Shown piece by piece: positions 6,001 through 57,090 of a DNA stretch of 64,000 bases. The translations under genes were made by a program, and so were the position numbers. The DNA is from Scenedesmus sp. PABB004 (taxonomy: Eukaryota), in contig JABVCE010000012.1 of assembly GCA_014905635.1 (NCBI GenBank), positions 744,001-808,000 of the forward strand, read 5' to 3'. The notes beneath the pieces are model-generated. The model had not been told where the DNA came from and made no database searches. It was given only the letters and a program-made list of their open reading frames with translations. Numbering within the stretch: the first letter of the stretch is position 1; every line of letters begins with the position of its first letter.

Positions 6001-7046
6001 GGCGCGGCGCAGCGGCGGCGGGCGGAGCTGGTGCAAGGTGCTGTCGGTGCGGCGCCCCGGCACGCGCGGCGGCGCGCGCATCAGCAAGGGCGCCGGCGGC
6101 GGTAGCGCCGGCACCTCGCCCGCGAAGCCGCCGGGCGGCGGCGCGCCCGGCGGCGGGGGCGCCGCGGGCGCGCCGCCGCCGCCGGGCGCGGCGCTCGGCG
6201 GCCTGCTCGACGGCTGGCCCGCCGCCGCGCTCGCGCCCGACTCGCTGCTGCCCGCGGCCGCGGCGGTGCTCGAGACGGTCTGCCCCGACCCCGCCGGCGC
6301 GCCGGGCGTGGAGGAGTGCCGGCTCGGCGTCGCGCTGCTGCCGCTGCGGCTGCGGCTCACGCCTGACCTCATCGCGTTTCTGATCGCCTTTGCCGGCGCG
6401 GTCGGCGACGCCGTCGCGGCGGTCGAGAACCCGCTCGCGGCCGCGGCGGCAGAGGCGGCCGCCGCCGCGGCCGCCGCCGCCGCCGCGGCTGCGCCGCCGG
6501 GCTCGCCGCCGGGCGCGCCGCCGGGCTCGCCGCCCGGCGCGCCGCCGGGCGTGCCGCCGCCGTTCTTCCAGAAGGCGGTCGTGTGGGGCACGGGGCTCAG
6601 CATCGAGCACCGCCCGCGCCGCGTCGACGTCGCGGCGCTGCGCGACGGCGAGCTGCTGGAGCTGCTCAACCTCGTGCCCTGGGGCGGCGTGGACCTCGCG
6701 CTCACGCCGCTGCGCTTCACCGGCGTCGTCGGCTGGGACGGCCTCGCCGGCGCCGCGGCGCGCGCGTGGCTGGGCCACGTCGGCCGCACGCAGGCGCACA
6801 AGTTCCTCGCCGGCGTCGCGCCGATCCGGAGCGTGCTGCGCGCCGGCGGCGCCGTCGCGGCGCTGCTGGCGGGCCCCGCGGCGTCGCTGCAGGGCGCGCT
6901 CGGCGGCGCGGTCGCGGCGGCCAGCCGCGGCGGCGGCGGCGGCGGCGCCGGCGGCGCCGGCGGCGCGGGACTGCAGCAGCGCCTGCGCGCCGCCGCGTCG
7001 TCGGTGGCGGCCGCCAGCCGCGTGGCCGCGGGCGCCAACCGGCCGC

Positions 7047-7078
<32 letters not shown>

Positions 7079-7633
7079 GAGGCGCCCCCGCCGGGCCGCC
7101 GCGCCGCGCTGGCCGCGGCGCTGCAGGACAGCAGCGCCGCGTTTGCGCGGGCGCTGCTGTTCGAGGCGCTCGGGCTGGGCGCGGGCGTCGCGGCGGGCGC
7201 GGAGGCGGTGCTGGCGGGCGGCGCGCCGCTCGCGCTGCCGGCGGCGCCGCCGTCGGGCCTGGCCGACGGCCTGCGCGCCGCGGCGGGCGAGGTCTCGGGC
7301 GGCATCGCGGGCGCGGCCGAGGCGCTCACGCGCGGGCTGGGGCCGTCGGTGCGCAGCTTCCGGCCGAGCGAGGCCGCCAGCTGGCAGGCAGCGGCGGCCG
7401 GCGTGCTGCGCACCGCGCCGGCCGCCGCGGCGGCGCCCGCGCGCGGGCTCGCCGCCGCCGCACGCAGCGCGCTGCTCGGCGCGCAGAGCGCGGTCGGCGC
7501 GGCGCCCGCGCGGGCGCGTGAGGCTGCGGCGCCGCGGCCACCGGACGGCGCAGATGAGGGCGCGACGAGCGAAAGCGAGAGCCAGGGCGGCGAGGAGCGC
7601 GGGGGCAGCGACAGCGACAGCGAGGACGCGTGA
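1..7633 (+). CDS. ATG2: Autophagy-related protein 2 (ATG2), spliced, 5' end outside window
   Basis: The C-terminal block PPFFQKAVVWGTGLSIEHRPRRVDVAALRDGELLELLNLVPWGGVDLAL...GVVGW...HKFLAGVAPIRS matches the conserved plant ATG2 C-terminal region. A CAD-like segment (SLRKDTAALAVQLL) lies near 3990. Introns at ~836-947 and ~3856-3955. Apparent frameshifts near 2960 and 5030. Confidence 0.88.
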
Positions 7634-17765: not shown

Positions 17766-18437
17766 GGCTGCGGCAGAGCAGCGCCAGGCGAGAGAGAGGG
17801 ATGACGACTGGCGGGCGGGCGGGCGGGAGCAGCAGCAGCTTGAGTCTGCTCGTGCAAACCCCGCGCCGCCGCTTGGAGAAGCAGCCGTCTGGGGCGCCTG
17901 GACGGCGGCCAAGCCACGGCCGCGCTGCGAGCAGCACGCCGGCGCCGCCGCCGCGGAGAGGGCGGCGCCGAGGGGGTCGGCGCGCGGGGCCGGCGCGCTG
18001 CCCTCTCACACCGCTGCCTGCCGGCTGGCTCGGCTGCATCATCGCGGCGTGCGCGTCTGCCGCCGCGCGGCGCCCCCCCCCCCCCCCCCCCCCCCTCAGC
18101 AGCAGCGGCGTCACCCCGGCGGCGCCCACAACCCTGGCGCCTGCGCCCTCCGCGCCCGCGGCGAGCACGCCGGCCGCGACGACCGGCCGCGCCGTCGCCA
18201 GTGAGCGTCGGTAGGGGGGCGGCAGGCGGCTCTTGCCCCTTGACCCCACCGAGGGGGGCCAGTGCCTCGCGCGACGCAGCCGCTCGGCTTATGCCCCACG
18301 CTTCGCCCTCGGCCGCCGCACACGCGCCGCGCCCTCGCGCCCAGCCTTTCGCCCGCCCCGCGCGCGCCGGTGCTCCAATCGGCTGCGCCCCGCGCGCCCG
18401 CGCGCCCCTGCCCCGGCCGCACCGCGACGCCGCCGCC

Positions 18438-21400
18438 ATGACGGTGGCCGTCGTCACCACCACGGTCGCGCAGACCGTGGGCGGCGCGCCGGAGGAGGCG
18501 GCGCTGGCGCCGGGCACGGCGGACTGGGACCGCCACGTCCCCGCCGCCGCGGTCGACGCCAAGGACGCCGACACGCCCGACGCCTGGGTGCCGCGCGACC
18601 CGCGCATCCAGCGCCTCACGGGCCGCCACCCGCTCAACTGCGAGCCGCCGATGGGTGCGCAGCGCGTGCGCCGGCGCCGCGCGCGCGCTGCGGCCCGCAA
18701 GGTGTGGGCGGGGCTCATGGCCCGCCGCGCCGCCGCCGCAGACGCGCTCATGGCGAGCGGCTTCATCACGCCGCCCAGCCTGCACTACGTGCGCAACCAC
18801 GGCGCGGTGCCGAAGCTCGCGTGGGGCAGCCACACGGTCACGGTCAACGGCCTCGTCGCGGCGCCGCTCAAGCTGACGATGGACGAGCTCGTGTCGCTGC
18901 CGTCCGTCACGCTGCCCGTCACGCTCGTGTGCGCGGGCAACCGGCGCAAGGAGGAGAACATGCTCAAAAAGTCCATCGGCTTCAACTGGGGCCCCTGCGC
19001 CGTGTCCACGAGGTGCGGCGCGGCGCGCGGCGGCGGCAGGGGCGGCAGGGGCGCCGGCCGCGGCGGCGACCGCGGCGGCGGCGGCGGGGGCGGCGCCCGA
19101 CCCTCCGCCGCGCGCGCCGCGCAGCTACTGGACGGGCGTGCGCCTCGGCGACCTGCTGCGCCGCGCGGGCGTCGCGCCGGGGGCGGGGCACGTGAGCTTC
19201 CGCGGCCCCACCGGCGAGCTGCCCAAGGGCGACGACGGCAGCTACGGTGCGCCTCGCTTGCCCGCGCCGCGTGCCTCGCTCGCCCGCGCCGCGCGCGCCG
19301 CGCGCCCGCGCTCCCCCGCGCGCGCCTCCCCACGCCACGCCCGCCCCCTCGCCTCCCTCCCCCGCCACCCGCGACAGGCACGAGCCTCACGCTGCACTAC
19401 GCGCTGGACGACGCGAACGACGTGCTCGTCGCGTACAAGCAGAACGGGCGCTGGCTCACGCCCGACCACGGCTTCCCCGTCCGCATGATCATCCCCGGCT
19501 TCATCGGCGGCCGCATGGTCAAGTGGCTGGCCGAGATCAGCGTCACGCCCGGCGAGAGCGCCAACTTTTACCACTTCCACGACAACAGGTGAGCGCGGGC
19601 TTTTTGTTGAACGAGGGTTTGAAGGCAGGGTTTAACACGGCTTTGAACGTGGCTTCCAACTTGGCCTTGGCGTTGAACTCGGCCCGTGCGGCGAGCCGCG
19701 GCCGCGCACGGGGGAGGCGGGCGGCCGACCGACGCCGCGCGCGCGCGCCCGCGCCGCCGCAGGGTGATGCCGCCGCACGTGGACGAGGAGCTGGCCAAGA
19801 AGGAGGGTGAGTCACGCACAGCGCGCACGCGAGGCGGCGACGCAGCCGCGCGGCCCGCTGCCGCCGCGCGGCCGCGGCGCCCCCGCCTCGCTCGCTCGCG
19901 CACCCGCCGCTCCCTGCCTGAGCTCCCTGCCTGAGCTCTGCCGGCGCTCGATCCGAACCGACCAGGCTGGTGGTTCAAGCCCGACTTCATCATCAACGAG
20001 CTCAACATCAACTCCGCCGTGAGCCGGCCCTGGCACGACGAGGTGCTGCCGCTCGGCACCAACGCCGTGTACCCCATGCAGGGCTACGCCTACTCGGGTG
20101 CGCGCCCGGCCCCGGGCCCCGCGCGCGGCAACGCACGGCGCCGCCGCCGCGCTCACGCGCCCGCGCCCGCGCGCCGTGCTGCCAGGCGGGGGCCGCAAGA
20201 TCATCCGCGTGGAGGTGTCGCTCGACGGCGGGCTCCTCTGGCGCCAGGCCGAGATCACGCGCCACGAGACGCCCACGCCCGCGGGCAAGCACTGGTGCTG
20301 GATCTTCTGGCGCTTTGAGGTGTGCCGCGCCGCCGCCGCCGCCTGCTCGGGGTTGCGGCCCCGCCGCGGCCTCCCAGCGCCCACGCCAGCGCGTGCGGCA
20401 GCGCGGCGCAGGCGCCGACCCGCGCCCGCCCGCACGCCCGCGCCCGCGCGCGCGCGCGCGCCCGCAGGTGCAGACGGTCGAGTTTGCGCGCGCGTCCGAG
20501 GTGCTCGTGCGGGCGTGGGACAGCAGCATGAACACGCAGCCCTCCCACATCACCTGGAACCTCATGGGCATGATGAACAACTGCCACTTCCGCATCAAGG
20601 TCCACCAGCACGTCGACGCGCAGGTCCGCGGCGGGCGACGCGGCGGCACGGCGGCGCGGCGGCGCGCGGCCCGGGCGCTGCGCGGCGGCGGCGGCCTGCG
20701 GCGCGCGCGTGCGCGGGCCCGCACGGCCGGCCGGCACGCTGACAGACCCCGCGCCGCGCGCCGCGCGCAGGGCAACATGGGCCTGCGCTTCCAGCACCCC
20801 GCGCCGGTGCAGCCCGGCGAGCTCGGCACGCTCGGCTGGCGCGAGGAGGAGGCGCTCGCGCGCGCGGGCGCCGAGGCGGCCGCCGCGGCGCCGGCCGCCG
20901 CGGCCGCGGTCGCCGCCAAGGCGGCGCCGCCGGGCGGCGCCGCGCTGTACACCATGGAGGAGGTCGAGCGGCACGCGAGCGAGGAGAGCTGCTGGTTCGT
21001 GCACGAGGGCAAGGTGCGCGCGCGCGCGCCGCCGCCGCCGTGTGCCTCCTCTTGCGCGCTCATGTCGCGAGCGCCCTTGACTGAACCCCTGCTCACCCTA
21101 AACCCCGCCGCCCGTCTCTCCCTCCCCGTGCGGGGGTCAGGTGTATGACGCGACGCCCTTCCTGGAGGAGCACCCGGGCGGCGCCGAGAGCATCCTCATC
21201 AGCGCCGGCATGGACGCGACGGACGAGTTCAACTCCATCCATAGGTGCGCGGACGCTGCCTGCGTGTGTGTGTGTGTGTGTGTGTGTTTGTGTTTAGTGT
21301 GTGCGTGGGTGTGCACACTCGCAGCGGGCGCCGCCGCCCACGCGCCCGCGCGCCCGCGCGCCCGCGCGCCCGCGCCCGCCCGTCCCGCGCCCGCCCGCCG

Positions 21401-38785: not shown

Positions 38786-41700
38786 TGGCGCAGCTGCCGG
38801 CGCTGACGCCGGTGCCGGAGGAGGCTGCCGCTGCAGACGCCGGCGGCGAGCACGACGGCAGCAGCGACAGCACCGTGGCCAGCGAGCCCGAGGACGGCAA
38901 GGGCGGCGACGCCGACTCGCAGGTGACGCCGCGCCGCTGGCTCACGGGCTTCTGTCGCTCGCTCGCTGACCCGCCCCGCGCCGCCGCCGCCGCCGCCCCG
39001 CCAGGAGGCGCCCCGCCCCGCGGCGCCAGCAGCAGCGGCAGCAGGCCCCGGCAGGGGCGCCGCCCTGGGCGTCGGCTCGCTGGCGGCAACGCTCGACGCC
39101 GCGGCAGCGCACGCGGCGGCCGAGCCAGGCGCGGTGCCGGCGACGCTGGCGCCGCCCGGCAGCGCGCTGGTGATGACGCTGGCGCCGCCCGGCAGCACGC
39201 TGGTGATGACGCTGGAGGCGGGGCCGCAGCCGGCCGCCAGCGAGCCGCCGGGCGGCAGCGCAGTCCCGGTGGCGCCGGCGCCTGGCGTGGTCGGCGGTGG
39301 CGGGAGCCCGGGGGCCGCTCCCGCCAGCCCCGCCAGCCCGCGGGCTGCCTCGCCGCCCGCGCCCGCCAGCCCCGGCGCCAGCGCGCCGGCCGCCAGCGAG
39401 AGCTGCGACCCGACCGAGGCGGGCGACGACGACGACGACGCGGGCGGCCACGAGGACAGCGCCCGGGGGGCGCTGACCTCGCCGCCGCCGGCCGGGCCGG
39501 CCCCAGCGGCGGCGGTGCCAGCGCGGGCGCCGAGGAGGCAGGCGAGGAGGCAGGCGAGGAGGTGGTGGACACGGAGGACGTGGAGGAGGCAATCACCCTG
39601 GTCAGCCAGGCGGCGGCCGCGCACGCCACGCCGGGCGGCGTCACGCCGGGCGGCGCCTCGCCGGTCGGGGCCACGCCGAGCGGCGCGACGCCTGGCGGCG
39701 CCATGCCGGGCGGCGGCACGCCGAGCGGCGTCACGCCGGGCGGCGCCACGCCGGGCGGCGCCTCGCCAGCGGTGCATCAGGCCTGCGGTGCCCAGGAGGT
39801 GCCTGCAGCGGCGACGCCCGCCCCGGCGGCCAGCCCCGCGCTGCCGGGCGAGGCGGCGGCGCCAGCGGCGGTCAGCCCCGCGCTGGGCGCTCGCGCCGAC
39901 CCGGCAGACACAGAGCAGCTCGAGGCCCCGGCGGGGGGCGGCAGCCCCGGCAGCGACGTGGCCGCCCCGGAGGCGGCGGCTGCGGAGCCCGCGGCGCTAG
40001 GGGCCGCACCCTCCGCGCGGCCCCGCGTGTCGTGGGCGGTGGGGCCGGCGCCGGCGCAGGGCGAGGAGGAGTCGGCCGCGCCGCCGGCGCTCGGCCAGCT
40101 GCGCGAGGCGGCGGCGGCCGGCGCAGGCGGCGTGCTGGGCGGCCTGCCGTCGGGGTCGCTCGCTGGCAGCCTTGACATCAAGGGCACAGAGTTCCAGGCC
40201 GGCGGAGGCATGACGCAGGCGGTGCGACGCACTGGCGCGCTCGCCCGGGGCGCCGCGGCGCCCGCGCTGCCGTTGCCTGCCGCGCGCGCACTCAGCGCCT
40301 GCGCCGCGCCGCGCTGCAGGTCGCGGCAGCTGACGTGGTCGTCGGCGACCTGCTTGCGGGGCTGGGCGGGTCGGACAACGACAGCGCTGGCGGCGGCGGC
40401 GGCGGTCACGGCGGCCTCATGGCCATGCTGGGCATGGCGCCGGCGGGCCGCGGGCCGGTGGCCAGCGGCAGCTCGCCCGCGGGCCTGGCCGCGGCGGCGG
40501 CAGCGCAGGGCGCCAGCGGCGGGGGCGTCTCCGGCGGCGGCGCGTCCGGGGGCAGCGCGGGCCAGCTGGGCGCCGCCGGCTTCAAGCTGCCCGGCCTCAG
40601 CCGGCGCGCGCGTGCGACGCCCACCCACGGCGCGGTCGGCCCCGACGCCGGCGCGCCCCCCGCGAGCGACGCGCCGGGCAGCGCGCCCGCTGCGCCGGCG
40701 AGCGGCGGGGCCCCCGCGCCCGCAGAGCACGCCGCCACGCCCGGCGCGGCGGCGGCCGCCGCCGCGAGCGGCGGCCGGCGGCGGCGGTCGTCTGGCAGCG
40801 CCGACATGGCCGCCGCCGCCGCGCGGCTGGCAGAGGGCCTCGTTCCCCACGCCGCGTCGCTACAAAGCACGCCGTCGCCCGCGGCGGGCGCCGAGGACGG
40901 CGCGGCCGCAGCGCCCAGGGACGGCTCGCCGGAGGCGGCCGGCGCGGCGCCCGCCGGCGGCAGGGGCCGGGGTCGTGGGCGCGGCCGGGGGCGCGGCCGG
41001 GGGCGCAAGCCGGCCTCCACCTCGCCGCGGGTGGCCGGTTTGGACCTCACGGAGCGGCAGCCGGAGGACGTGGCAGCGCAGCACCAGCGCGCGGCGCGGC
41101 TCGCGGCCGCGGCCGTGGCGAGCGAGGCGGGCAGCGAGGAGCCGCGGCGCGCGGGGCTGCTGGCGGCGCTCACGGCGGCCGGGCCAGGCGAGCGCAGGCC
41201 GCCGCGCGGCGGCAGCAGGAAGGGCAGCGAGGAGCCCACGCTCGAGCCGGAGCGCGAGGCGGCGCCGGCGGTGCAGCAGGCGGAGGCCGACGCCGCCCGG
41301 CCGGCTGCGCCGCCGGCGGCCACCCCGGCGCTGGTGGCCAAGCGCCGCAAGCGGCAGCAGGAGCACCAGGAGCAGCAGGAGGCGGCGCACGGCGGCCGGC
41401 AGCAGCGGCGGCGCGGCGCGCACCGCGGCCGGGCCGCGTCGGCGGAGCCGGACGCTGAGGTGGCTGAGCAGGCCGGTGACGGTGAGGCGGGCGAGGAGCA
41501 GCAGGCGGACGAGCAGGAGGCGCCCATGGACATCGACGATGCGGCGCACGAGGGCGCCGCCGAGCCTGCGCCGCCCGCAAAGCCATCGGGCCTTGGCGGC
41601 GGCCGGCGCAAGCGCGGCAGGGACTCGGCGGTGGCCGCGGCTGCGGCCCCCGCCGCAGCGGTGGAGGCGCCGGACGCGGCCGCCGTGCCCGCGCAGACGG

Positions 41701-43638
41701 GCGCAGCGCGCGGCAGGCGCAGCGCTGGCGCCGCTGCCACCCCGGCGGGCAGCGGGCCCGCGAGCGGCCGCAAGCGCGGCCGCGCGGCGGCGGAGCCCGC
41801 CGAGGAGGCAGCAGTGACGCCGGCGGCGGCAGCCGGCGGTGAGGCGCGCAGCGCCAAGCGCGGCCGCAAGTCGGTGACGTTCGCTGGGGAGACGCCGGCG
41901 GCCTCCGGCGAGGGCGGCGGCGAGGCGGCCGCCGCGCCCGCGGGGGAGACGCGTGGCGGCCGGCGCGGCCGCGCGTCCGGCCCGCCGACGCCTGCGGCGG
42001 CGGCGGGCGACGCTGCCGGCGGCGCAGCGGGGAGCGAGGCAGGGCCGAGCGAGCAGCCGGCGCCGTCAGCAAAGAAGGCCAAGGGCCTGCAGGGCGGCGT
42101 CGGGGCCCGGCGCGCCAGCAGGCGGCAGCAAGCCGAGGAGCAGCCGGCGGACGCGGACGAGCCCGGGCCGCCGGAGCAGCAGGAGGGAGCAGACGCGCCC
42201 GCCGGCGGCCGCAGGGCCAAGCAGCAGCAGCAGCAGCCCGCGCCGCAGCGGGGTCGCGGCCGGCCGCGCAAGCAGGCGGCGGAGGCGCAGGCAGAGGACA
42301 GGGAAGAGGAGGAGGGTGCGGCGGCGCAGGAGGCTGAGGCTGAGCCGCAGCCCGCCAAGGCGCGCGGGCGCCCGCCCAAGCGCGCCGCGGCAGCGGCGGA
42401 GGCCCAGGAGGCGCCCGCAGCGCCGGCGCGGCGCGGCAGCAAGCGGCAGCAGCCGGCCTCGCCGTCGGCGTCGGCCTCGGACGGCGAGGCGGCGGACGCG
42501 CAGGACGGCGACGGCGCCGCGGCGGGCGCGGCGGGCGACGTCGTTGTCGCCCTGAGCGGCATGCACAGCGATGCGCGCGCGCGCCACGCCGCCGCGCTGC
42601 GCCGCCTGCGCGTGCGCTGCCAGCCGACGAGCCACAGCTGGCAGCCCGGCACGAGCCACGTCGTGCTGCCGCGCCTGAAGCGCAGCGAGAAGACCCTCGC
42701 CGCGATGGCGGCCGGCGCGTGGCTGCTCGGTGAGGCCTGGCTCGACGGCAGCGCGGCGGCGGGGCAGCTGCTGGCGCCCGAGGTGCACGAGCTGGAGGAG
42801 TGCGAGGGCGGCGCCATCAGCGACGGTGCGCCGCCGCGGCCGCTGCTGCGGCGCAGCCGGCGGGAGCAGGGGCGCGAGCGGCACCCGGCGCGCCCGCGCC
42901 CACGCGCCGCCGCTGCCGCGCGCCGCGCCGCAGGCGCGCCGGCGCACTGGCGCACGCGGCGCGAGGCGCTGGAGGCGGCCGGCGCGGAGGGCGGCGGTGG
43001 CGCGGCTGGTGGGGGCACGGGCGCGTTTGAGGGCGTGCGGGCTGTCTTCTATGGCACCAGCGAGTCGCCGCCGCTCGACAGCCTCGCGCGCGTGCTCAAG
43101 GCCGGCGGCGGGCAGCTGCTCAAGCGCGGCCCGCCGTTTGCGCCCGTGCTGCCCGCGCCGCCGCCGGCGGCGGCGGCGGCCGCCGCGCGAAGGGCGGCGG
43201 CAAGGCGCGCGGGGGCGGCGCCGCGGCGGGCGCCGCAGCTGCCGCCGCGGCGGCCGCGGCCGCTGCGGCGGAGGGCCGCGCCAACCTTGCCATCATCGGG
43301 GCGGACAAGGCCGGCGACGCGGACGAGCGGTGCGCCTGCGCCGGCGCCGCGGCGCGGCGCCGCGCAGCGTCGGCCCCAGGAGGCCGACCCGCCGACCCGT
43401 CGCGCGCCGCGCCGCCGCGCGCGCGCCGCCGCGCAGGTGGGTGTCGTCGCTGCTGGAGGCGGGCGTGATGTGCGTCGCGCCGCAGTACCTCGTGGACTGG
43501 CTCGCGCACCCCTGGCAGCCGCTCGATGGCCACCGCCTCTTTGGCTGCGCGCTGCAGCCCGGCAGCGAGCTCGCAGGCCTCGAGGAGGGGCGGCGGCGCA
43601 TCGCCGGCGAGCAGCAGCAGGTGTCGGAGTCGTTTTGA
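37291..43638 (+). CDS. Four-BRCT DNA-damage scaffold protein (At4g02110/BCP1-like) with AT-hook motifs
   Basis: N-terminal BRCT pair (CVAPEWV; SHVIAA...KIQQAAK|FGLHVVGSQWLDDCLAAW). C-terminal tandem BRCT (SHVVLPRLKRSEKTLAAMAAGAWLL...APAHWR...GAFEGVRAVFYG...LDSLARVLKAGGG...CVAPQYLVDWL...LDGHRL). AT-hooks RGRGRPRK and RGRPPKR. Several frameshifts. Confidence 0.85.
39625..39768 (+). repeat. 15-bp coding repeat, (A/V/G)-T/S-P-G/S-G x ~9
   Basis: Translates as ATPGG VTPGG ASPVG ATPSG ATPGG AMPGG GTPSG VTPGG ATPGG ASP. Confidence 0.85.
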
Positions 43639-43958: not shown

Positions 43959-45911
43959 TCACTTGCGGCCGAGCGCGGCGACCGCGGCCTTGTGGCCCTG
44001 CCCCACCGCGGCGACCTTGGCCTGGTGCGCGGCGGCGGCCTGCGCGACCGTGGCCTGCGCCGCGTCCACGGCGGCCTGGTGCGCGGCGGCGGCCTGCGCG
44101 ACGACGGCCTGCGCCGCATCAACCTTGGCCTGGTGCGCGGCCACGGCCTGCACTACCGCGGCCTGTGCCGCGTCCACGGCAGCCACGTGCGCGGCGGCGG
44201 CCTGCGCGAAGACGGCCTGCACCGCGGCGACCTTGGCCTGCACGGCGTCCGCAATGGCGGCGTGCACGCCGCCGCCGCCGGCGGGGCTGGCACCCTTGGC
44301 GGCCGGGGCGCTGGCCGCGCCGCCGGCCCCCTTGCCGACGCTGACGGCGGTGAAGGGCGCGCTCACGTCGACAGCGGTCTGCGCGAGCCTGGCGGCGCGG
44401 CGGCGGCGCGGGGCGTGCGAGCAGAGTCAGCGGCGGCGCGCCGCCTGCAGCCGCCCCCGCGCCCGGCGCGGCGACCGCCGCCGCGGCACCACAGAGGCGC
44501 GCACCTGCGGCCGGAGGCCCAGGGGTGGCTGCTGACCGCTGCCGCCGCGAACGGGTGGCTCAGGGCCCACAGGGCCAGGAGCGGGTGGCCCACGCCGAGC
44601 TTGCCGGCGGCGGGCGCGGGGCTCGCCGTGGGCGCGGGCGAGGGGCTGCCAGCGCCGGCGCCGCCGACGTTGACGGAGGTGCCGGGAGCGGTCACAGAGA
44701 CGGCGGGCGCGGGGCTCTCCTCGGGCGCGGGGCTCTCCTCGGGCGCGGGCGAGGGGCTGCCGGCGCCGCCGACGTTGACGGCGGTGCCGGGCGCGGTCAC
44801 GGAGACGCCCGGCGACGGGCTGCCAGCGCCGCCGACGTCGACGGCCGTGCCGGGCGCGCGCACGGAGACGGCGGGCGAGGGCTTGCCGCCGCTGGGGCAG
44901 CTGCCGGAGCGCGCGGCGGTGGGGATGTCACACTTGTTCAGCCTGCGGGGCGGCAGAGCAGCGCGCGGCGGCGTGTGGAGTCAGCAGACGGTCAGCAGAG
45001 CGCGGACCGGGAGGCGCGCGCGCTGCGAGCGCCGCGCGCAGCCAGCCGCCCAGCGCGCCCGGCCGGCGCACGCACACGTCTTGCACGCTGGCGCGCGTGA
45101 CGCCGGCGCCGCGGGCGAGCTGGCGCACGCGGCGCGGCGGGGCGGCGTGGGCGCGGCTCAGCGGGCGCGCGGGCTGCGCGCGCGCAGCGCGCGGCGGGCG
45201 CCGGGCTGGGGGCCTGACCGTCCCCAGGGGGGGGGGGGGGGGGGGCAGCGGCCGGCTCACCGCGTTCTGCTCGAGCCCGGACAGCGTGGCCTCCAGCACG
45301 TCAGCGTTGCACAGGCCTGCGCGCACGCGGCGGCGGCGGTCGGCGGGCTGAGGCCGCACGGACGCGGCGCGGCCCGGACCCCCCGCCGGCACGCCTCCGC
45401 CGCCGCCGGCTGGCGGCGCCGCGTGTGCGCGCGCGCGCTCACAGCCGGCGAGCTGGCCGGAGCCGGGGAAGTCCAGCAGGCCGTTCGCCGCCGAGCAGCA
45501 CGCCGCGGACGGGCCGCCCTGGCACGCCGACAGCTGCGAGAGCAGGCCGGTCTGGCCGATGGAGTTCACGCGGCGCTGGCACTCCTGGGAGGACGGCAGG
45601 CCCTGGGAGGTGGCGCCTGCGCGCGCACGCGCGCGCGCGTGCGGCCGGCCGCAGCGGAGCGGTCGCAGGAGGGCCGCCGCAGGAGGGCCGCCGCGGCCGC
45701 GCCGGGCGCCGGCGCGGGCCGCGCGGTCCCTTGGAGGCGCCGGGGACCGCAATGCGCGTACTGGGCGGCACGCCCGGCGCCCCGCGACTGCGGACGCGCC
45801 AGGCCGGCCCCGAGAGCGCCCGCCAACGCCAGGCGCCCTGCCCGCGCCGCTGGCGCGCTGATCACCTGCCAGCGCCGCGCAGACGAGCAAGATAAGCAGG
45901 AGGAGCTTCAT
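43959..45911 (-). CDS. Secreted eight-cysteine-motif (nsLTP/prolamin-like) protein with Ser/Pro-rich linker and His/Ala repeat tail (6 exons)
   Basis: Signal peptide MKLLLLILLVCAALAG. Spliced Cys pattern C-X18-C-X7-CC-X17-CLC-X34-C-X10-C, followed by SPSP/VSVTAPGTxVNV repeats, GRRLAQ and 18-aa repeats. All five GT-AG introns are phase-compatible. Confidence 0.8.
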
Positions 45912-46007
45912 GGCGGCGAGCGGGCGCGAGCGGGTGGCGCGCGGGGCGGGGACGGGCGGGTGCGGGCGCGCGCGGGCGGGGACGTGGCGAGAGGGCTGCT
46001 GGTCGCT

Positions 46008-46973
46008 GCGGGGCGCGGAGGCGGCTCGGGGGCGCGATCGTGACCCGGGCGCTGAGCCCCAGCGCGCGGCACCCGCTGCCGGCCGGGCGCTGACGGCCGG
46101 GACCTCCCGGCACCCGGGGCAGCCCGGGCGCGCGCTCAGCGCCGGGACGCGACGCCACACGCTCGCGCCGCGACCGCGCCGGTGCGCCGCCGGGCGCCGA
46201 GGTCGGCGGCGGCCGCGCCGGTCCGCGTGCCGGCGCGCGGCGGCGCTCCCGGCGGCCGGCCGCCCGCGGCCGCGCTCCCAACCCGCGCCGGGCCTCCCAA
46301 CGCCAGCGCGTGCAGGCTGGCAGGCCGCGCACCCAGCCGCCACGCGTGCCCCGACACCTGGGCGCCGCGGGGCCGGCAGCGCGCGCACGCGGGGCGCTGC
46401 CGGCAGCCCGCACGGGCGCAGCGTCAGCCGGGCCAGTGCCGCGCCGTGATTAGGCAGCCGCTGCGGCGCACGCGGCCCCCGCGGCGCATCGCCTGCCAGC
46501 AGGCAGCCGCCCGCGCGGAGCTGCGGGACTGCACGCGCTGCGGGACTCGACGCGGGCCCTGGCGGCGCCGGGTGACCAGTGGGTTGACGGTGCTGCCGGC
46601 CCAGCTCCGCCTCCCGCGCCAGCCGCGTCGCGGCTCCTGCCGCCGCGCCGTCGCACCCGCCACACGCCGCCCCGCCCGCAGCCGACAGCGCACACCGCCC
46701 GCGCCGCGCATCGCCGCACGCAGACCACCGCGCAATGGCCCGCCTCACCGCTCTCACGGCCGTCCTGGCCGCGCTGGTGCTCGCCCAGGTGAGGAAGCCA
46801 GCCCCGGCGCTGCGATCGCGGCCGGCCCTGCGCTGGCTTGGGGCGCGTGCAGCGCGGGCGGCGGTCGTGGCGGTGATGCAGATGACCGGCACCTCCGCTC
46901 AGCCCCCGGCTCGCCTGCACCGCGCCGCCGGGCGCGACCGCGCGCGCGCCGCGCGGCGCAGCGCCGGGCGCGC
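46008..46973. repeat. Copy 2 of the ~1 kb inverted duplication
   Basis: Reverse complement of 35776-36869, minus one 125-bp unit. Confidence 0.93.
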
Positions 46974-53031: not shown

Positions 53032-55083
53032 ATGCGGTTGGCGCCGCCGCTCGCCGGCGGTGCGTGGCGGGGAGCGCCGGCCCCTGCTGCACAGGTGAGG
53101 CTCGCGGGAAGCTCCACGCGAGCGCGGAACGCTCGCGGCAACCGCCGCCAACCGCCGCCGCCCGCCGCGCGCGGCTGCTGCTGCGGCAGCGGCGCTGCCG
53201 CGCGCGCGCCGCCGCCGCCGCACCGCCCAGGGCGGCGGCCCAGGTGGACGCCGCGTCCACCAGCGCGCCCAGCGCCAGCGACCGCGAGCTGCGCGTGTTC
53301 TACCGCACCACCTGGCCCACCGCCAAGCTGCACGGCAGCCTGCAGGGCGGCGCGTGGCGGGACTTCCCGCTCGCCAAGGTGCGGCCAGCCCCTGAGGCTG
53401 CGCCGCCGCCTGATGCTGTCTGCTGCTGCTGGTGCCGCCGATGCAGGCACGCCGCCGCCGCCGCCGCCGCAGATCAACGACGCGCCCAGCAAGTGGCTCT
53501 CCGCGACGATACCGCTCGCCCCCGGCGCGCCCGCCGACGCGCCGCTGCTGGAGTTTGTGGTCACCGACGGCGGCGCCAACTGGGACAAGCCCGCCGCGGG
53601 TGCGCCCGGCGCCGCAGCGCCGCGCAGCGGCGGCGGCCGCGCGGCCGCCGGATGCGGCGCGCGCCGTGCCGTGCCGCGCCGTGCCCGCCCGCACGCCGCG
53701 CCGCGCCGCGCCCGCCCCCACGCGCGGCCGCAGGCGGCAACTACACCATCACGGCGCCCGGGCGCTACGCGCTGCGCCGCGGCGCGCTGAGCGCGCTGCG
53801 CGAGGGCCCGCCGCCGGTGATGGTCGTGAGCGACCTGGACGGCACCATGGTCGGCGACGACACAGCCACCGGTGCGCGCCGCCGCCGCCGCACGGCGGCG
53901 GCAGCGCGCCGGGGGTGCCGCGCGGGCGGCCCGAGCGCGCGCTGCCGGCCCAGCGCCGCCGCCGCCGCCGCCGCCGCCGCGCAGCCGAGTTCAAGGAGTG
54001 GTGGGAGGGCGAGGCGCTGCTGCGGGGCGGCGTGCTGGTCTACAACACCGGCAGGCGCGGCGCGCCGCGATGGCCGCCCGCCCCGCCCCGCCCCGCCCTG
54101 CCCCGCCCAGCCCGCCGCGCAGCGCCGTCGCGCTCACACGCCGCGCCGCCGCGCCGCCGCGCCGCCGCCCGCACGCCGCCGCGGCACAGGGCGCTGGCGA
54201 GCTTTGAGGCGCTGCTCGCCGACAAGTCGGCCGTGCTCGCGCACCCGGACGTGCTCATCAGCGCGGTGGGGACCAAGATCTACAACTTCAGCGCCGCCCG
54301 CGGCTGGCAGGAGGACCGCGGCTGGGCCGCGCAGCTCGACCAGGACTGGCGCGTCGACGCCGTGCGCGAGGCGGCGTACGCGGCGCTCGCAAAGGCGCGG
54401 CGCGCCGCCGCCGCGCGCTCGCCGCCGCCGCCGCCGAGCGCTCGCCGCCGCCGCGCGCGGCCCACGGGGCGCGCGCCGCGCCACTCCGCGCCTGCGCGCA
54501 CCGCGCTGCAGGTCGGGAAGGAGTGCATGCACTTCCGGCCGCCGGACGAGCAGAACGAGCACAAGATCACGTGCGGCGTCGCCGTCGCCGCGCTGCCGGG
54601 CGTGGTCGGCGGCATCGAGGCCGCGCTGCGCGGCGCGGGCGTGCGCGCCAACATCATCACCAGCGGCACGGGTGCGCCGTGCGCGCTCCCCGCCCCCGCG
54701 CGCGCGGCCCGACGCGCCGCGCAGCGCGCGCCCCACACCCGCGCGCCGCCGCCCCGGCCCGGCCGCTGGCAGGTGACTGGCGGTTCATGGACCTGGTGCC
54801 CGCGCGCGCGGGGAAGCTGCAGGCGCTGGAGTACGTGCGCGCGGCGCGGGGCTTCCCGCTGAGCGCGACGGTCGCGTGCGGCGACAGCGGCAACGACATA
54901 CTCATGCTCTCCGGCGCCAACCTCGCCATCGTCGTCGGCAACGCGCAGCCCGACCTGCTCGACTGGCTGGCGGGGCACGTGGGCGAGCCGTCGCCGCTGC
55001 CCGGCCGCGACCGCCTGCACCGCGCGGCCGCGGCCGAGGCGCGCGGCATCCTCGAGGGGCTGGCGTACTTCGGACTGAAGTGA
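53032..55083 (+). CDS. Sucrose-phosphate-phosphatase-family HAD hydrolase with N-terminal carbohydrate-binding-like module
   Basis: HAD-IIB motifs VVSDLDGTMVG, VYNTGR, PDVLISAVGTKIY, EQNEHKIT, AGKLQAL, VACGDSGNDILM and VGNAQ. N-terminal module VFYRTTW...LHGS...W...LEFVVTDGGANWD...GNY. The start is uncertain (alternative ATG at 52863). Confidence 0.88.
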
Positions 55084-55398
55084 CGCGCTCGATCACTTCA
55101 CCTGGACTGGCTCTGTGAGGCTGCGGCAGGCTGCCGCCGACCTGCCGGCCGCAGAGCGCGCGGACGGACCTGCGGCGGCGCCTGGCCGGACGCGGCGGCG
55201 CGGCGGCGCTGCAACGACAAGCTCGCCCGACGCATCCCCGCCACACACTCGCACCCACGCGCCACCATCCGCGCTGCCACCGCGCCCGCGCGCCCCACGG
55301 CCGCCCGAGCCGTCGCGATCGCCTCGCCCGCTGCTGCCGCGCGCATTGGGCGGCGCTGCGGCGCGCCGGAGCCTGACTCCGCTGGTCCTGCGGGAGGC

Positions 55399-57090
55399 AT
55401 GCGGAGCGCCCAGCTGGCGCGCCAGCTGCTGGGCGGGCTGGCGCGGCGGCGGCAGCAGCAGCAGCCCGCCGGCCGGCTGCTGCTGGCGCCCCTGGCCGCC
55501 GCCGCGACCCCCGGCCGCGCCTACCAGGCCGCCGCGGACGCAGCCGCCTCCCAGGACGCCGGCGCGCCCGCGGGCAGCGCCGGCGCCGGCGCAGCGGGCG
55601 GCGGCAGCGCCGGCGCAGCGGGCGGCGGCGGCGCAGCGGCGGCTGGCGCCGCGGCGTGGGCGCCCGCGCACGGCCTGCCGCCGCCGGACATTTACAGCGT
55701 GCGCGTGACGGTCAAGGCGCACGACCTCAAGTTCGTCAAGCTCGCGAGCACCGCGATCCGGGACCTGCTGCTCGTCAACTTTGCGCCCAAGAGCCGCGCC
55801 GCCGTGCCGGCCGAGTGGCGCAAGGACTCGCCGCTGCCGCACGTGCAGCTGGTGCGCCGTCGGCGCGGCGCGGCGCGCAGCCCGGCAGCGCCCGCCCGCG
55901 CCGCGCGCGCCGGCGCCGTTTGCGTGCACCCCTCGCGCGCCCACCGCCCCGCCGCGCCCGCCCCGCGCCGCGCGCAGGCGCTGCCGGTCGGCGACGCGGC
56001 GCTGCCGATCCGGCGCAGCCACTGGACGGTCATACGCGGCCCGCACGTGCACAAGACCAGCCGCGAGCAGTTTGCGCGCACGACGCACGCGCGCGTCATC
56101 GCCGCGGCGACGAACAACCTCTCCGAGCTCACCTGGTTCCTGGACAGCCTGAAGCTCTACAAGTTTGTCGGCGTGGAGCTCGTCGTGCGCGTGGGCAGCA
56201 GCAGCTACCTGCTGCCGACGAGCGAGGCCGCGCGCGACGCCGCCGACGCGCCGCTGCTCGCGGGCCACCGCGCGCGCTTCGCGCACCTCTTTGGCGCGGC
56301 CGCGCCCAGCGCCGGCGGCGGCGGCGGCGGCGCGCCGGCGGGCGGCGAGCCCGGCGCGGGGGAGCTGCAGGCGTCGCTCGCGGGCCTGCGCGGCGCGCTG
56401 CAGGACGGCCTGCTGCAGCAGCGGCTGCGGCTGGAGGCGTCGCCAAGCTTTGCGCGCTGGCGCGAGGGCGCGGGCGGCGCGGCGGCGGCCGCCGCGGCCG
56501 CGGCCTCGGCGCCGCCGGCCGCGTCCGCCGCGGCGCCGGCGCCGGCGCTGCAGGACGCGGTCGCGGCGCAGGTCGCGCGCAGCGGGCTCGCGGCGCCGGG
56601 CGGCGCGGCGCCCGGCGGCGGCGCGGGCGCCGGGCGGGAGGGCGCGCTGCTCGCGGCGCTCGACCGCGCGCTGCTGGGGCTGAAGCTGGACGTGCTGGAC
56701 CGCGCGCGTCTCCTTCCTTACCTCATGGCCTTTGTGCAGCCCGGCGGGCCGCCGGCGGCGGCGGCGGAGTGGATGCACCGCGCGCTCGCGTACGGCCGCG
56801 CGCGGCAGGCGCAGCTCGAGGCGAGCGGCGCCGCAGCGGCGCTGTCGGGCTACGCGCAGCTCGGCCAGGCGGGCCGCGCGGCGGCGCTCATGGCGCTGCA
56901 GTCCTGGTGGGCCGCGGCCGACGGCGGCGCGCGGCGCGCGCTCGCGCTGCCGGGCGCGGAGCAGCTGGACGCGATGCTGCCGGCGCAGCCCAAGGAGCAG
57001 CAGCGGCGCGGCGGCGGCGGCGAGGGCGGCGGCGGCAAGGGCCGGGAGCCGGCCGGCGGCGAGCCGGCTGAGCCGCGCGACGAGCCGTGA
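55399..57090 (+). CDS. RPS10: Mitochondrial ribosomal protein uS10m with long C-terminal extension
   Basis: VRVTVKAHDLKFV...LPIRRSHWTVIRGPHVHKTSREQF...GVELVV. Arg-rich presequence. One intron at ~55853-55977. Confidence 0.88.
   Translation: MRSAQLARQLLGGLARRRQQQQPAGRLLLAPLAAAATPGRAYQAAADAAASQDAGAPAGSAGAGAAGGGSAGAAGGGGAAAAGAAAWAPAHGLPPPDIYSVRVTVKAHDLKFVKLASTAIRDLLLVNFAPKSRAAVPAEWRKDSPLPHVQLVRRRRGAARSPAAPARAARAGAVCVHPSRAHRPAAPAPRRAQALPVGDAALPIRRSHWTVIRGPHVHKTSREQFARTTHARVIAAATNNLSELTWFLDSLKLYKFVGVELVVRVGSSSYLLPTSEAARDAADAPLLAGHRARFAHLFGAAAPSAGGGGGGAPAGGEPGAGELQASLAGLRGALQDGLLQQRLRLEASPSFARWREGAGGAAAAAAAAASAPPAASAAAPAPALQDAVAAQVARSGLAAPGGAAPGGGAGAGREGALLAALDRALLGLKLDVLDRARLLPYLMAFVQPGGPPAAAAEWMHRALAYGRARQAQLEASGAAAALSGYAQLGQAGRAAALMALQSWWAAADGGARRALALPGAEQLDAMLPAQPKEQQRRGGGGEGGGGKGREPAGGEPAEPRDEP

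Follow-up and report, generated by a model that had tools for sequence, protein, structure and literature searches.

The segment at positions 43959 to 45911 of the window (the whole 64-kb stretch of Scenedesmus sp. PABB004 DNA analysed here) raises the question of whether it holds a real gene for a secreted eight-cysteine-motif (8CM) protein, and whether such a protein belongs with the nsLTPs of plants. The source DNA is about 80% GC. According to the first-pass annotation, exon joining gives a leader followed by C-X18-C-X7-CC-X17-CXC-X34-C-X10-C. We recover this spacing exactly in a six-exon model on the minus strand, and the annotated limits 43959..45911 are exactly its TGA (43959-43961) and its ATG (45909-45911). 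The joined exons form a 1188-nt CDS, in frame, for a predicted protein of 395 aa with the N-terminus MKLLLLILLVCAALAG. All five introns have GT..AG borders, and the CDS carries the coding-type signature GC3>GC1>GC2 (GC3 0.95 versus GC2 0.63). The elements of the model and the repeats within its last two exons are the following:

Exon 1, 45866..45911, minus strand: ATG in the context GCCGCCATGA, the hydrophobic leader MKLLLLILLVCAALA and base 1 of codon 16
Intron 1, 45617..45865, minus strand: 249 nt, GTGATC...GCGCAG
Exon 2, 45443..45616, minus strand: Cys1-Cys4 (C28, C47, C55, C56) and T, base 1 of the Cys5 codon
Intron 2, 45317..45442, minus strand: 126 nt, GTGAGC...GCGCAG; phase 1, within the Cys5 codon
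Exon 3, 45261..45316, minus strand: rest of Cys5, Leu and Cys6 (CLC), then NADVLEATLSGLEQNA
Intron 3, 45120..45260, minus strand: 141 nt, with a 19-base homopolymer inside
Exon 4, 45076..45119, minus strand: 44 nt, LARGAGVTRASVQD and two bases
Intron 4, 44943..45075, minus strand: 133 nt, GTGCGT...CCGCAG
Exon 5, 44505..44942, minus strand: Cys7 (C111) and Cys8 (C122), then an Ala/Pro/Gly/Ser-rich linker
Tandem repeats of 63 and 105 nt, 44611-44892, in exon 5
Three VSVxAPGTxVxV modules, 44834-44869, 44771-44806 and 44666-44701, minus strand: in the exon 5 linker
Three HP(L/F/W) motifs, 44519-44587, minus strand: in the exon 5 linker
Intron 5, 44389..44504, minus strand: 116 nt, GTGCGC...GCCAG; predicted only
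Exon 6 (predicted), 43959..44388, minus strand: a degenerate module TAVDVSAPFTAVSV, a Gly/Ala spacer, 18-residue repeats and TGA
Period-54 repeat, 44006-44240, in exon 6: about 4.4 copies of an 18-residue Ala/Val/Gln/His unit

In the spliced protein, cysteines stand at 28, 47, 55, 56, 74, 76, 111 and 122, which gives C-X18-C-X7-CC-X17-CLC-X34-C-X10-C, and introns 2, 3 and 4 fall between C4 and C7. As had been annotated, the CXC is split by an intron: intron 2 divides the Cys5 codon as T/GC, with CTG TGC next. The unspliced six-frame translation of the 64 kb contains no match to the strict 8CM pattern, which allows neither an extra Cys nor a stop; the spliced model matches it. The motif is therefore invisible in ORF lists and appears only upon splicing, in agreement with the first-pass annotation. 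The domain covers residues 20-126 (about 105 residues) and has a pI of 5.05, that is, it is not basic. It follows the hydrophobic leader MKLLLLILLVCAALA, read straight from the sequence and presumed to be a signal peptide; relatives have a similar leader immediately before the domain. The product, of about 35 kDa when mature and with no membrane span, is thus predicted to be secreted.

Relatives were found with exon 2 alone, which gave 21 phmmer matches at E<=0.001 against 1.84 billion proteins, none of them from Chlamydomonas. The best match, P0001, is a transcript ORF of Flechtneria rotunda (E 4.9e-18, 77% identity), and the spliced protein is 65% identical to it over 130 aligned columns. 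P0009 and P0015 proved to be spurious, as both are long, made of repeats and lack the cysteine pattern, and P0021, an odd repeat protein, was left out. The organisms represented are Flechtneria, Monoraphidium minutum, Haematococcus lacustris and Tetraselmis striata, the last with P0003, which matches exon 2 in three stretches (phmmer E 3.7e-10). A profile search that scored 8000 word-sharing candidates gave at least eight proteins, at least four of them from Haematococcus lacustris, and did not recover P0010 and P0013, which were part of the query. Residues 17-120 of P0010, used as query in a word-index protein search, returned only P0010 itself; exon 2 gave 595 pattern matches in metagenome contigs, none of which was confirmed, and no usable match in the ESM Atlas. 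All but one of the eight cysteine columns are invariant, and the remaining one is occupied in nine of ten domain segments; over 13 alignment rows, Cys1-4 are invariant and Cys5 and Cys6 nearly so.

The same relatives bear on the splice junctions. Across junctions 1/2 to 4/5 the spliced protein is colinear with P0001 and with five of seven further aligned relatives (P0010, P0013, P0014, P0005 and P0017); of the remaining two, P0019 ends shortly past CLC and P0008 includes the intron. P0008, an ORF on another organism's contig, reads through an insertion at the site of intron 2 (..AGCE....SGLCNAD), and the position of this intron is therefore conserved. In the alignment, the exon 1/2 join ..ALAG/ATSQGLPSS corresponds to ..SGVTGQGIPSS in P0001, and the exon 4 block to LARSSGVTRASTQT in P0001, with counterparts in P0005, P0010, P0013, P0014 and P0017. 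A family HMM of 104 positions, built without any window sequence, matches the spliced protein with 120.6 bits (E 1.1e-36) over HMM positions 2-104, compared to 66.4 bits in three pieces for the unspliced ORF. The window has 616 further ORFs of at least 40 aa, and the HMM matches none of these. The proposed junctions outscore all alternative GT-AG combinations at up to 36 nt (two for intron 2, three for intron 3 and nine for intron 4); for intron 4 the family profile gives 122.3 bits versus at most 109.5 for the nine alternatives. The homopolymer of intron 3 reads as G19 on the plus strand, at 45227-45245.

The predicted exon 5/6 join, ..SGRR/LAQ.., can be compared with ..IGRRLSMV in P0001 and ..GGRRRLAD in P0013. 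Exon 6 has GC3 0.95, GC2 0.61 and GC1 0.87, and its ORF has no Met, so that a gene start of its own is impossible there. A tail like that of exon 6 is found in none of the aligned relatives. TGTAA is the poly(A) signal of Chlamydomonas; the window has seven, none of them from 34839 to 55692 and hence none near the 3' end of the gene, which is uninformative. The family HMM matches this locus only, so the 64 kb hold no second copy of the gene, and the remaining tblastn rows in the window are Ala/Pro-rich low-complexity matches.

Beyond the chlorophytes, the question becomes whether the domain belongs with plant LTPs. The LTP_2/Tryp_alpha_amyl profile check proposed in the first-pass annotation was run on 12 relatives and came out in part: PF00234 or PF14368 was the top Pfam match in seven of them (E 0.0016-0.98), but none reached a curated cut-off, with PF00234 at 14.1-19.1 bits versus 21.7 (5 of 12) and PF14368 at 10-17.2 bits versus 22 (5 of 12). 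Isolated domains matched PF00234 in five of ten cases, below threshold (best E 3.2e-4), and the window's own exon pieces, exons 5 and 6 included, matched no Pfam family. When PDB sequences were searched with family profiles up to E<=10, no LTP came up, the full profile matching low-complexity tails only and the domain-only profile nothing at all; exon 6 had one irrelevant PDB match (E 0.21). With the P0001 domain, the best ESM Atlas match (score 0.75) was a Chlorophyta cluster that has PF00234 in 79% of its members, and we take it as a lead only.

For the structural comparison we used the AlphaFold models of two relatives whose identity to the window's protein is 65% and 41%. In both, the domain is modelled with a pLDDT of about 88-90 and is all-helical with the same helices; the predicted fold of the closest relatives is a compact four- to five-helix bundle. 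The AlphaFold/Foldseek check that had also been suggested accordingly yielded, for these two relatives, a confident helical domain and nsLTP1 rows (5 of 7 for the P0001 model), but only at E >=3.8 for both models. VIA-align matched the P0001 model to nsLTP2 1tuk (Z 4.1, rmsd 2.9, 60/67 residues), DIR1 (Z 3.9, 65/77 residues), nsLTP 5tvi (Z 3.9), and a 2S albumin and a lentil LTP (both Z 3.6); rice nsLTP1 gave Z 4.3, rmsd 3.1 and 71/91. Among 48,161 chains, prolamin-superfamily entries make up five of the top 13 for the first model and seven of the top 50 for the second. LTP-superfamily matches overall range over Z 3.0-4.3 and rmsd 2.9-4.3; Z is at most 4.3 throughout, a level that unrelated helical proteins (a mitoribosomal protein and Not1 MIF4G, for example) reach as well, while the aligned identity of prolamin-superfamily rows (15-28%) is above that of most unrelated rows.

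Taken together, sub-threshold Pfam matches and recurrent structural matches give the domain its only family-level resemblance, a weak one, to the nsLTP/prolamin superfamily. The eight-Cys order agrees with the assignment to the nsLTP/prolamin 8CM scaffold; the Pfam scores stay below cut-off, and the recurrent structural matches have Z values of only about 4. We place the protein in a chlorophyte family at the edge of this superfamily (PF00234/PF14368); the link to plant LTPs is probably real but weak, and the present data do not decisively strengthen it.

Among land-plant nsLTPs (types I, II, D and G; DIR1), the likeness lies in the eight-Cys order, the compact all-helical domain (in the models of relatives) and predicted secretion, and the best small-domain structural matches are nsLTP2 1tuk, DIR1 2rkn and nsLTP1 1rzl/2alg, at Z about 4 only. 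The differences are a mature mass of about 35 kDa versus 7-10 kDa, an acidic domain, and introns within the motif instead of past C8. Unlike type G nsLTPs, the protein has no GPI-type hydrophobic C-terminus visible by eye (the six-exon product ends in ...KAAVAALGRK and P0001 in ...LIGRRLSMV), and a reading as GPI-anchored LTPG was set aside. Multi-8CM proteins (prasinophyte OtLTP1/2 and P0003 of Tetraselmis striata) share the domain family and Pro-rich spacers, but have three to five tandem domains versus one here, and those of Tetraselmis add a transmembrane stretch and a cytosolic tail that the window's protein lacks. HyPRPs run from a Pro-rich N-terminal part to a C-terminal 8CM; the order here is reversed, which places the protein outside their definition.

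The linker after the domain, annotated earlier as Ser/Pro-rich, is indeed present as an Ala/Pro/Gly/Ser-rich stretch (Ala 20.5%, Pro 17.3%, Gly 15.0%, Ser 14.2%) with 11 SP and 10 AP dipeptides. The same VSVxAPGTxVxV modules, along with (K/G)HP(L/I)L motifs, also occur in P0001, P0010 and P0013. The tail is 42% Ala, and two thirds of the whole protein is low-complexity repeat. An amphipathic-helix reading of the 18-residue tail repeat was dropped because its hydrophobic moment is merely 0.06-0.20.

The closest described proteins are algal. Green-algal nsLTPs were reported to have extended 8CM spacing, a larger mass and an 8CM region interrupted by several introns; in their group AII, the C1-C2 and C6-C7 intervals are longer and the X of CXC is Leu (Huang et al. 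2023, BMC Plant Biol 23:21, PMC9832785). The window's gene is like group AII, as described in the relevant sections of that paper, in X18 between C1 and C2, X34 between C6 and C7, CLC, and three introns within the 8CM; with the green-algal lineage at large it shares a signal peptide (presumed here) before the 8CM, larger mass, an acidic domain, 8CM-flanking sequence and partial Pfam recognition, the Pfam LTP_2 model having recognised about half of the published algal set. The first-pass annotation had framed the gene by a fold long regarded as a land-plant innovation, little-studied algal members and an atypical spacing; as a claim of novelty this framing finds no support, since algal proteins with extended spacing, CLC and intra-8CM introns were published in 2023 and the spacing matches the description of group AII. 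The central claim, nsLTP-like proteins in green algae, is thus already in print, and the gene adds a member to a known green-algal LTP-like group rather than a new kind of protein, because that family was described in PMC9832785.

Its fit to group AII is by description only, because C2-X7-CC lies outside the survey's search range (Xn = 8-50) and the relatives' accessions KAI8471788.1, KAL6764709.1 and KAL6763687.1 are absent from its supplementary Table 1, which lists 29 accessions, none of them among our matches. The survey reports no gene for Haematococcus lacustris, where we find the relatives counted above, and its relevant sections make no mention of VSVxAPGTxVxV modules, HPLL motifs or 18-residue repeats. 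CrLTP1 and CrLTP2 of Chlamydomonas reinhardtii (group AI in the same source) are likewise algal 8CM proteins that are secreted, have a Pro-rich flank, are encoded with five introns and are proposed as carriers of aliphatic wall precursors, and CrLTP2 binds C20-C24 fatty acids in vitro (PMC9832785). They differ in an extension between C2 and C3, Pro/Ser in CXC and an N-terminal flank, and form two adjacent copies in Chlamydomonas, versus one copy here in 64 kb.

What would such a protein do? We consider it likely that this real chlorophyte gene of the green-algal nsLTP lineage encodes a secreted, wall-held LTP-like lipid carrier of 395 aa. In nsLTPs, the disulfides that surround the hydrophobic cavity pair C2 with C3, C4 with C7, and both C1 and C8 with C5/C6. 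Four such disulfides would hold the helices of the window's protein around a hydrophobic pocket, which may take up a long aliphatic chain, by analogy with CrLTP2 and its C20-C24 fatty acids. The C-terminal two thirds (linker modules, HPLL-type motifs and Ala/Val/Gln tail) would retain the carrier within the cell wall or at its surface, where it could pass on lipid-derived wall precursors instead of diffusing off.

Three other explanations have to be weighed against a wall-held carrier. That there is no gene at all, and that the pattern comes from the choice of splice sites in 80% GC DNA with most frames open, is suggested by the 408 stop-free stretches of at least 100 aa in the window, the abundance of GT and AG, and the absence of the protein from the protein collections searched. 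Against this, exon 2 alone reaches E 4.9e-18 among 1.84 billion proteins, the spliced product shares 65% identity with an ORF from another alga's transcript and scores 120.6 bits with the family profile, the proposed junctions are the top-scoring ones, and GC3 is 0.95 versus a GC2 of 0.63. For exons 1-5, homology, profile and junction scores and GC3 refute the idea, and as a whole we regard it as scarcely credible; by these sequence comparisons the locus is a real nuclear chlorophyte gene, with junctions supported through exon 5 and exon 6 predicted. A convergent eight-Cys pattern, in which a chlorophyte-specific disulfide-rich helical fold has another extracellular role and is no homologue of plant nsLTPs, seems very unlikely. 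It would account for the lack of any significant sequence or structure match to an LTP, Pfam matches that all stay below cut-off, PDB profile searches without LTP, and a Z of at most 4.3 tied with unrelated helical proteins; the X18, X7 and X34 spacings, longer than or outside the usual land-plant nsLTP values, also count for it. Yet the complete order C, C, CC, CXC, C, C is kept across the family, the sub-threshold Pfam matches in 7 of 12 relatives fall on two LTP-clan families instead of being scattered, and prolamin-superfamily rows recur with each of two independent models (five among the first 13 rows, seven among the first 50).

More can be said for a true but distant 8CM/prolamin member that serves chiefly as a structural or protective wall protein, although we find this, too, rather unlikely. 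As in HyPRPs, 2S albumins or inhibitors, the Cys domain would then form a stable knob that withstands proteases, carried by a glycosylated wall polymer rich in repeats. Such a role would suit a protein of which two thirds is low-complexity repeat; the better Pfam match, PF00234, spans inhibitors and seed-storage proteins besides LTPs, 2S albumins are among the structural matches, and the repeat modules and HPLL motifs are kept in relatives and are therefore themselves under selection. However, the sole tested algal relative-by-description binds long-chain fatty acids, and the Leu of CXC, present here, faces the cavity in lipid-binding types (both in PMC9832785). The best-covered structural matches are lipid binders as well (nsLTP2 60/67, DIR1 65/77), and the domain order, from 8CM to Pro-rich, is the opposite of that in HyPRPs.

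The gene offers a well-supported example of an LTP-like eight-Cys gene in an extreme-GC chlorophyte, in which ORF lists are of no help and the motif emerges only post-splicing. It is further evidence for an 8CM scaffold older than land plants, and extends the family to Haematococcus lacustris, for which the 2023 survey gave none (PMC9832785). A more specific proposal, which we hold to be quite unlikely, is that the window's gene and its relatives in Flechtneria and Monoraphidium, together with the contig protein P0013, form a subfamily of wall-tethered carriers of aliphatic precursors, built as an LTP-like domain followed by VSVxAPGTxVxV modules and (K/G)HPLL motifs, that the 2023 screen missed because of the C2-X7-CC spacing. 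If so, the subfamily would supply long-chain precursors for a resistant lipid polymer (an algaenan-type layer) in chlorophycean walls. It would then be an algal functional counterpart of the LTPG/type C nsLTPs of cuticle and sporopollenin, and this job would predate land plants. The conserved C-terminal modules provide a testable handle on possible retention in algal walls.

The 8CM gene is read on the minus strand as six exons.

Exons of the eight-cysteine-motif (8CM) gene, placed by minus-strand reading and location of the splice junctions
45911-45866, minus strand, exon 1
45616-45443, minus strand, exon 2
45316-45261, minus strand, exon 3
45119-45076, minus strand, exon 4
44942-44505, minus strand, exon 5
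44388-43959, minus strand, exon 6

All five introns (249, 126, 141, 133 and 116 nt, in order; GC 82-89%) run from GT to AG. Intron 3 contains a homopolymer run of 19 G at 45227-45245, read as C19 on the gene strand. The spliced coding sequence of 1188 nt (GC3 0.95, GC2 0.63) is translated into a 395-aa protein with the N-terminus MKLLLLILLVCAALAG, in which cysteines 28, 47, 55, 56, 74, 76, 111 and 122, downstream of the leader, form the motif C-X18-C-X7-CC-X17-CLC-X34-C-X10-C. This is exactly the spacing written down in a first-pass annotation made from the sequence alone, and the CXC is split by an intron as described there, since intron 2 interrupts the fifth cysteine codon as T|GC. The annotation had also stated that no ORF displays the motif; indeed, none of the six translated frames of the unspliced window matches the strict eight-cysteine pattern, which only the spliced product fits. 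Because introns 1-3 have lengths that are multiples of three and contain no in-frame stops, a 656-aa ORF (44928-46898, minus strand) spans exons 1-4 together with their introns.

The 57 residues of exon 2, used as the sole phmmer query against 1.84 billion representative sequences, returned 21 matches at E<=0.001. The top match, P0001 (E 4.9e-18, 77% identity), is a complete ORF from a Flechtneria rotunda transcriptome; others come from Monoraphidium minutum, Haematococcus lacustris, Tetraselmis striata and further contig proteins. Two of the 21, P0009 and P0015, are unrelated repeat proteins and were set aside as spurious. The spliced protein is colinear with the relatives P0001, P0010, P0013, P0014, P0005 and P0017 over all junctions from exon 1/2 to exon 4/5 (for example QLAGC|LCNADV, EQNA|LARGAGVTRAS and VQDV|LNKC), with 65% identity to P0001 over 130 columns. 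In P0008, an ORF from another organism's contig, an insertion falls precisely at C|LC, so the position of intron 2 is conserved. Furthermore, a family HMM built from the domains of ten relatives, window sequence excluded, matched the spliced protein in a single piece (120.6 bits, E 1.1e-36, HMM positions 2-104 of 104), compared with 66.4 bits in three pieces for the unspliced ORF, and had no match among the remaining 616 ORFs of the window. When every GT-AG alternative within 36 nt was scored by bits, the modelled junctions were best, at 122.3 bits, for intron 2 (at most 65.5 for 2 alternatives), intron 3 (at most 89.1 for 3) and intron 4 (at most 109.5 for 9). Taken together, colinear relatives, HMM score and best-scoring junctions make exons 1-5 well supported at the sequence level. 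Exon 6 is predicted on weaker grounds: its splice sites are canonical and keep the frame, its composition is GC3 0.95 and GC2 0.61, its ORF has no Met, it carries one further copy of the exon-5 module, and the exon 5/6 join (..GRR|L..) resembles ..GRRLSMV in P0001 and ..GRRRLAD in P0013.

The conserved core of the family is the cysteines. Among 12 relatives, PF00234 (Tryp_alpha_amyl) was found in five and PF14368 (LTP_2) in five, one or both in seven and as the top Pfam match every time, at 10-19.1 bits against curated cut-offs of 21.7 and 22, respectively, which none of the 12 reached. With isolated domains, PF00234 matched five of ten (best E 3.2e-4) and LTP_2 three of ten. The window's own exon pieces matched no Pfam family, and family profile searches of PDB sequences found no LTP.

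AlphaFold2 was run on P0001 (13-row alignment) and on P0014, an H. lacustris relative. The P0001 model (pLDDT about 88-90 over residues 30-125) has predicted helices at 31-41, 43-53, 59-69, 84-96, 98-102 and 107-116 and a disordered tail; P0014 is predicted with the same helices (mean pLDDT 78). Foldseek returned nothing at E <3.8 for either model; among its matches, all at E >=3.8, plant nsLTP1 accounted for five of seven with P0001, and 35 were obtained with P0014, including 1bwo, 2alg and 1rzl. In VIA-align comparisons with 48,161 chains the highest Z was 4.3, a value that rice nsLTP1 reached (rmsd 3.1, 71/91 residues).

VIA-align matches to the P0001 model
Rank 4, wheat nsLTP2 (1tuk), Z 4.1, rmsd 2.9, 60/67 residues
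Rank 6, DIR1 (2rkn), Z 3.9
Rank 8, nsLTP (5tvi), Z 3.9
Rank 12, Ber e 1 2S albumin, Z 3.6
Rank 13, lentil LTP, Z 3.6

With the P0014 model, 1tuk ranked 2 and seven prolamin-superfamily entries fell in the top 50. Unrelated helical proteins equalled the nsLTP-superfamily Z scores.

The first-pass proposal of a Ser/Pro-rich linker is borne out by residues 126-252 (Ala 20.5%, Pro 17.3%, Gly 15.0%, Ser 14.2%; 11 SP and 10 AP dipeptides), which contain VSVxAPGTxVxV modules and HP(L/F/W) motifs, three of each (window 44519-44869); in the DNA of this region there are tandem repeats of 63- and 105-nt period. Because such modules, with (K/G)HP(L/I)L motifs, recur C-terminal to the domain in P0001, P0010 and P0013, the linker architecture is conserved in the subfamily; neither modules nor HP motifs match a Pfam family. 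The exon 6 product (residues 253-395) is 42% Ala and includes an 18-residue unit (54-nt period) repeated about 4.4 times, with a low hydrophobic moment (0.06-0.20). This tail is absent from all relatives aligned and has no Pfam or PDB sequence match. The predicted mature protein is about 35 kDa with a pI of 8.2, the domain alone 10.7 kDa with a pI of 5.05.

For the view that green algae lack nsLTPs, Edstam et al. continue to be cited in reviews (PMC10215178, available portion). This picture has changed because Huang et al. 2023 (PMC9832785, cited throughout from its available portion) described 29 nsLTP genes in 13 green algae; their 8CM has extended spacing and is interrupted by several introns, and the proteins are heavier and have a lower pI. 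Of the two groups that they distinguish, AII is marked by Leu in the CXC and by longer C1-C2 and C6-C7 intervals; CrLTP2 of Chlamydomonas reinhardtii binds C20-C24 fatty acids and is expressed in late zygotes. Compared by description only, the window's protein agrees with group AII on every point that could be compared. Since the survey's pattern search (Xn = 8-50) would miss the C2-X7-CC of this family, and the retrieved relatives' accessions are absent from its table as available, the subfamily may correspond to AII or to a sister group that the survey does not list. The survey gives H. lacustris no nsLTP genes, whereas four family entries from this species were retrieved here (P0014, P0035, P0036 and P0037). 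Full-text literature searches returned no primary paper on algal nsLTPs beyond Huang et al. 2023. The window gene is an additional member of this published green-algal nsLTP-like lineage (PMC9832785, available portion), so that the first-pass interpretation was right in substance and overstated its novelty; the protein has a conserved C-terminal architecture and a lineage-specific Ala-rich tail.

The gene, its junctions through exon 5, its family membership and a conserved eight-cysteine domain, helical in the relatives' models, are established, and the notion that there is no gene at all, to which we attach next to no credence, is already refuted for exons 1-5. For the nsLTP/prolamin scaffold named at first pass, cysteine order, Pfam tendency and recurrent structural matches speak in favour; against it, all Pfam scores are sub-threshold and Z does not exceed 4.3. 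That an unrelated fold acquired the cysteine pattern by convergence nevertheless seems improbable to us, and distant homology to the nsLTP/prolamin superfamily is the best reading of sequences and models, because one small superfamily recurs in two models and the Pfam pattern and cysteine order point the same way.

Under distant homology, and by analogy with nsLTPs and CrLTP2, the protein would be secreted, its four disulfides would surround a hydrophobic pocket that binds long aliphatic chains, and the repeat-rich C-terminal part would keep it in the wall. The carrier step derives from that analogy; an 8CM wall protein with a structural or protective role and no carrier function is rather unlikely, though of the rival readings we give it the most weight.

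Several relatives are built differently. P0003, P0024 and P0025 (Tetraselmis striata), P0002, P0004 and P0016 have three to five tandem eight-cysteine domains with Pro-rich spacers, followed in the Tetraselmis multi-domain proteins by a membrane-span-like hydrophobic stretch and a short tail. P0005 (309 aa) carries its domain C-terminally, preceded by roughly 100 aa that contain Cys and by a stretch rich in Pro and Ala, a HyPRP-like order that reverses that of the window's protein; its eighth Cys lies away from the usual place. In H. lacustris, P0036 has an apparent retained intron after CCDR, and the start of P0037 lies within the domain.

Open frames are uninformative in this 64-kb window, because it holds 408 stop-free stretches of at least 100 aa; G+C is 74-84% in each 2-kb bin. 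Of 19 long ORFs whose GC3 and GC2 are coding-like, four have Pfam matches. The identities of these four point to a eukaryotic source and, taken with the relatives of the 8CM protein, to a chlorophyte green alga.

Window ORFs with Pfam matches
4232-7630, plus strand, ATG2 (E 1.5e-33)
17844-19589, plus strand, molybdopterin oxidoreductase domain (E 5.5e-37)
53414-54859, plus strand, sucrose-phosphate phosphatase (E 2.7e-11)
55084-57087, plus strand, ribosomal protein S10/S20e (E 1.2e-09)

A convergent neighbour gene (about 40176-43638, plus strand), one piece of which has weak matches to BRCT (E 0.011) and AT-hook (E 0.061), both below threshold, has a final coding stretch that ends in a TGA near 43636-43638, about 320 nt from the stop codon of the 8CM gene.
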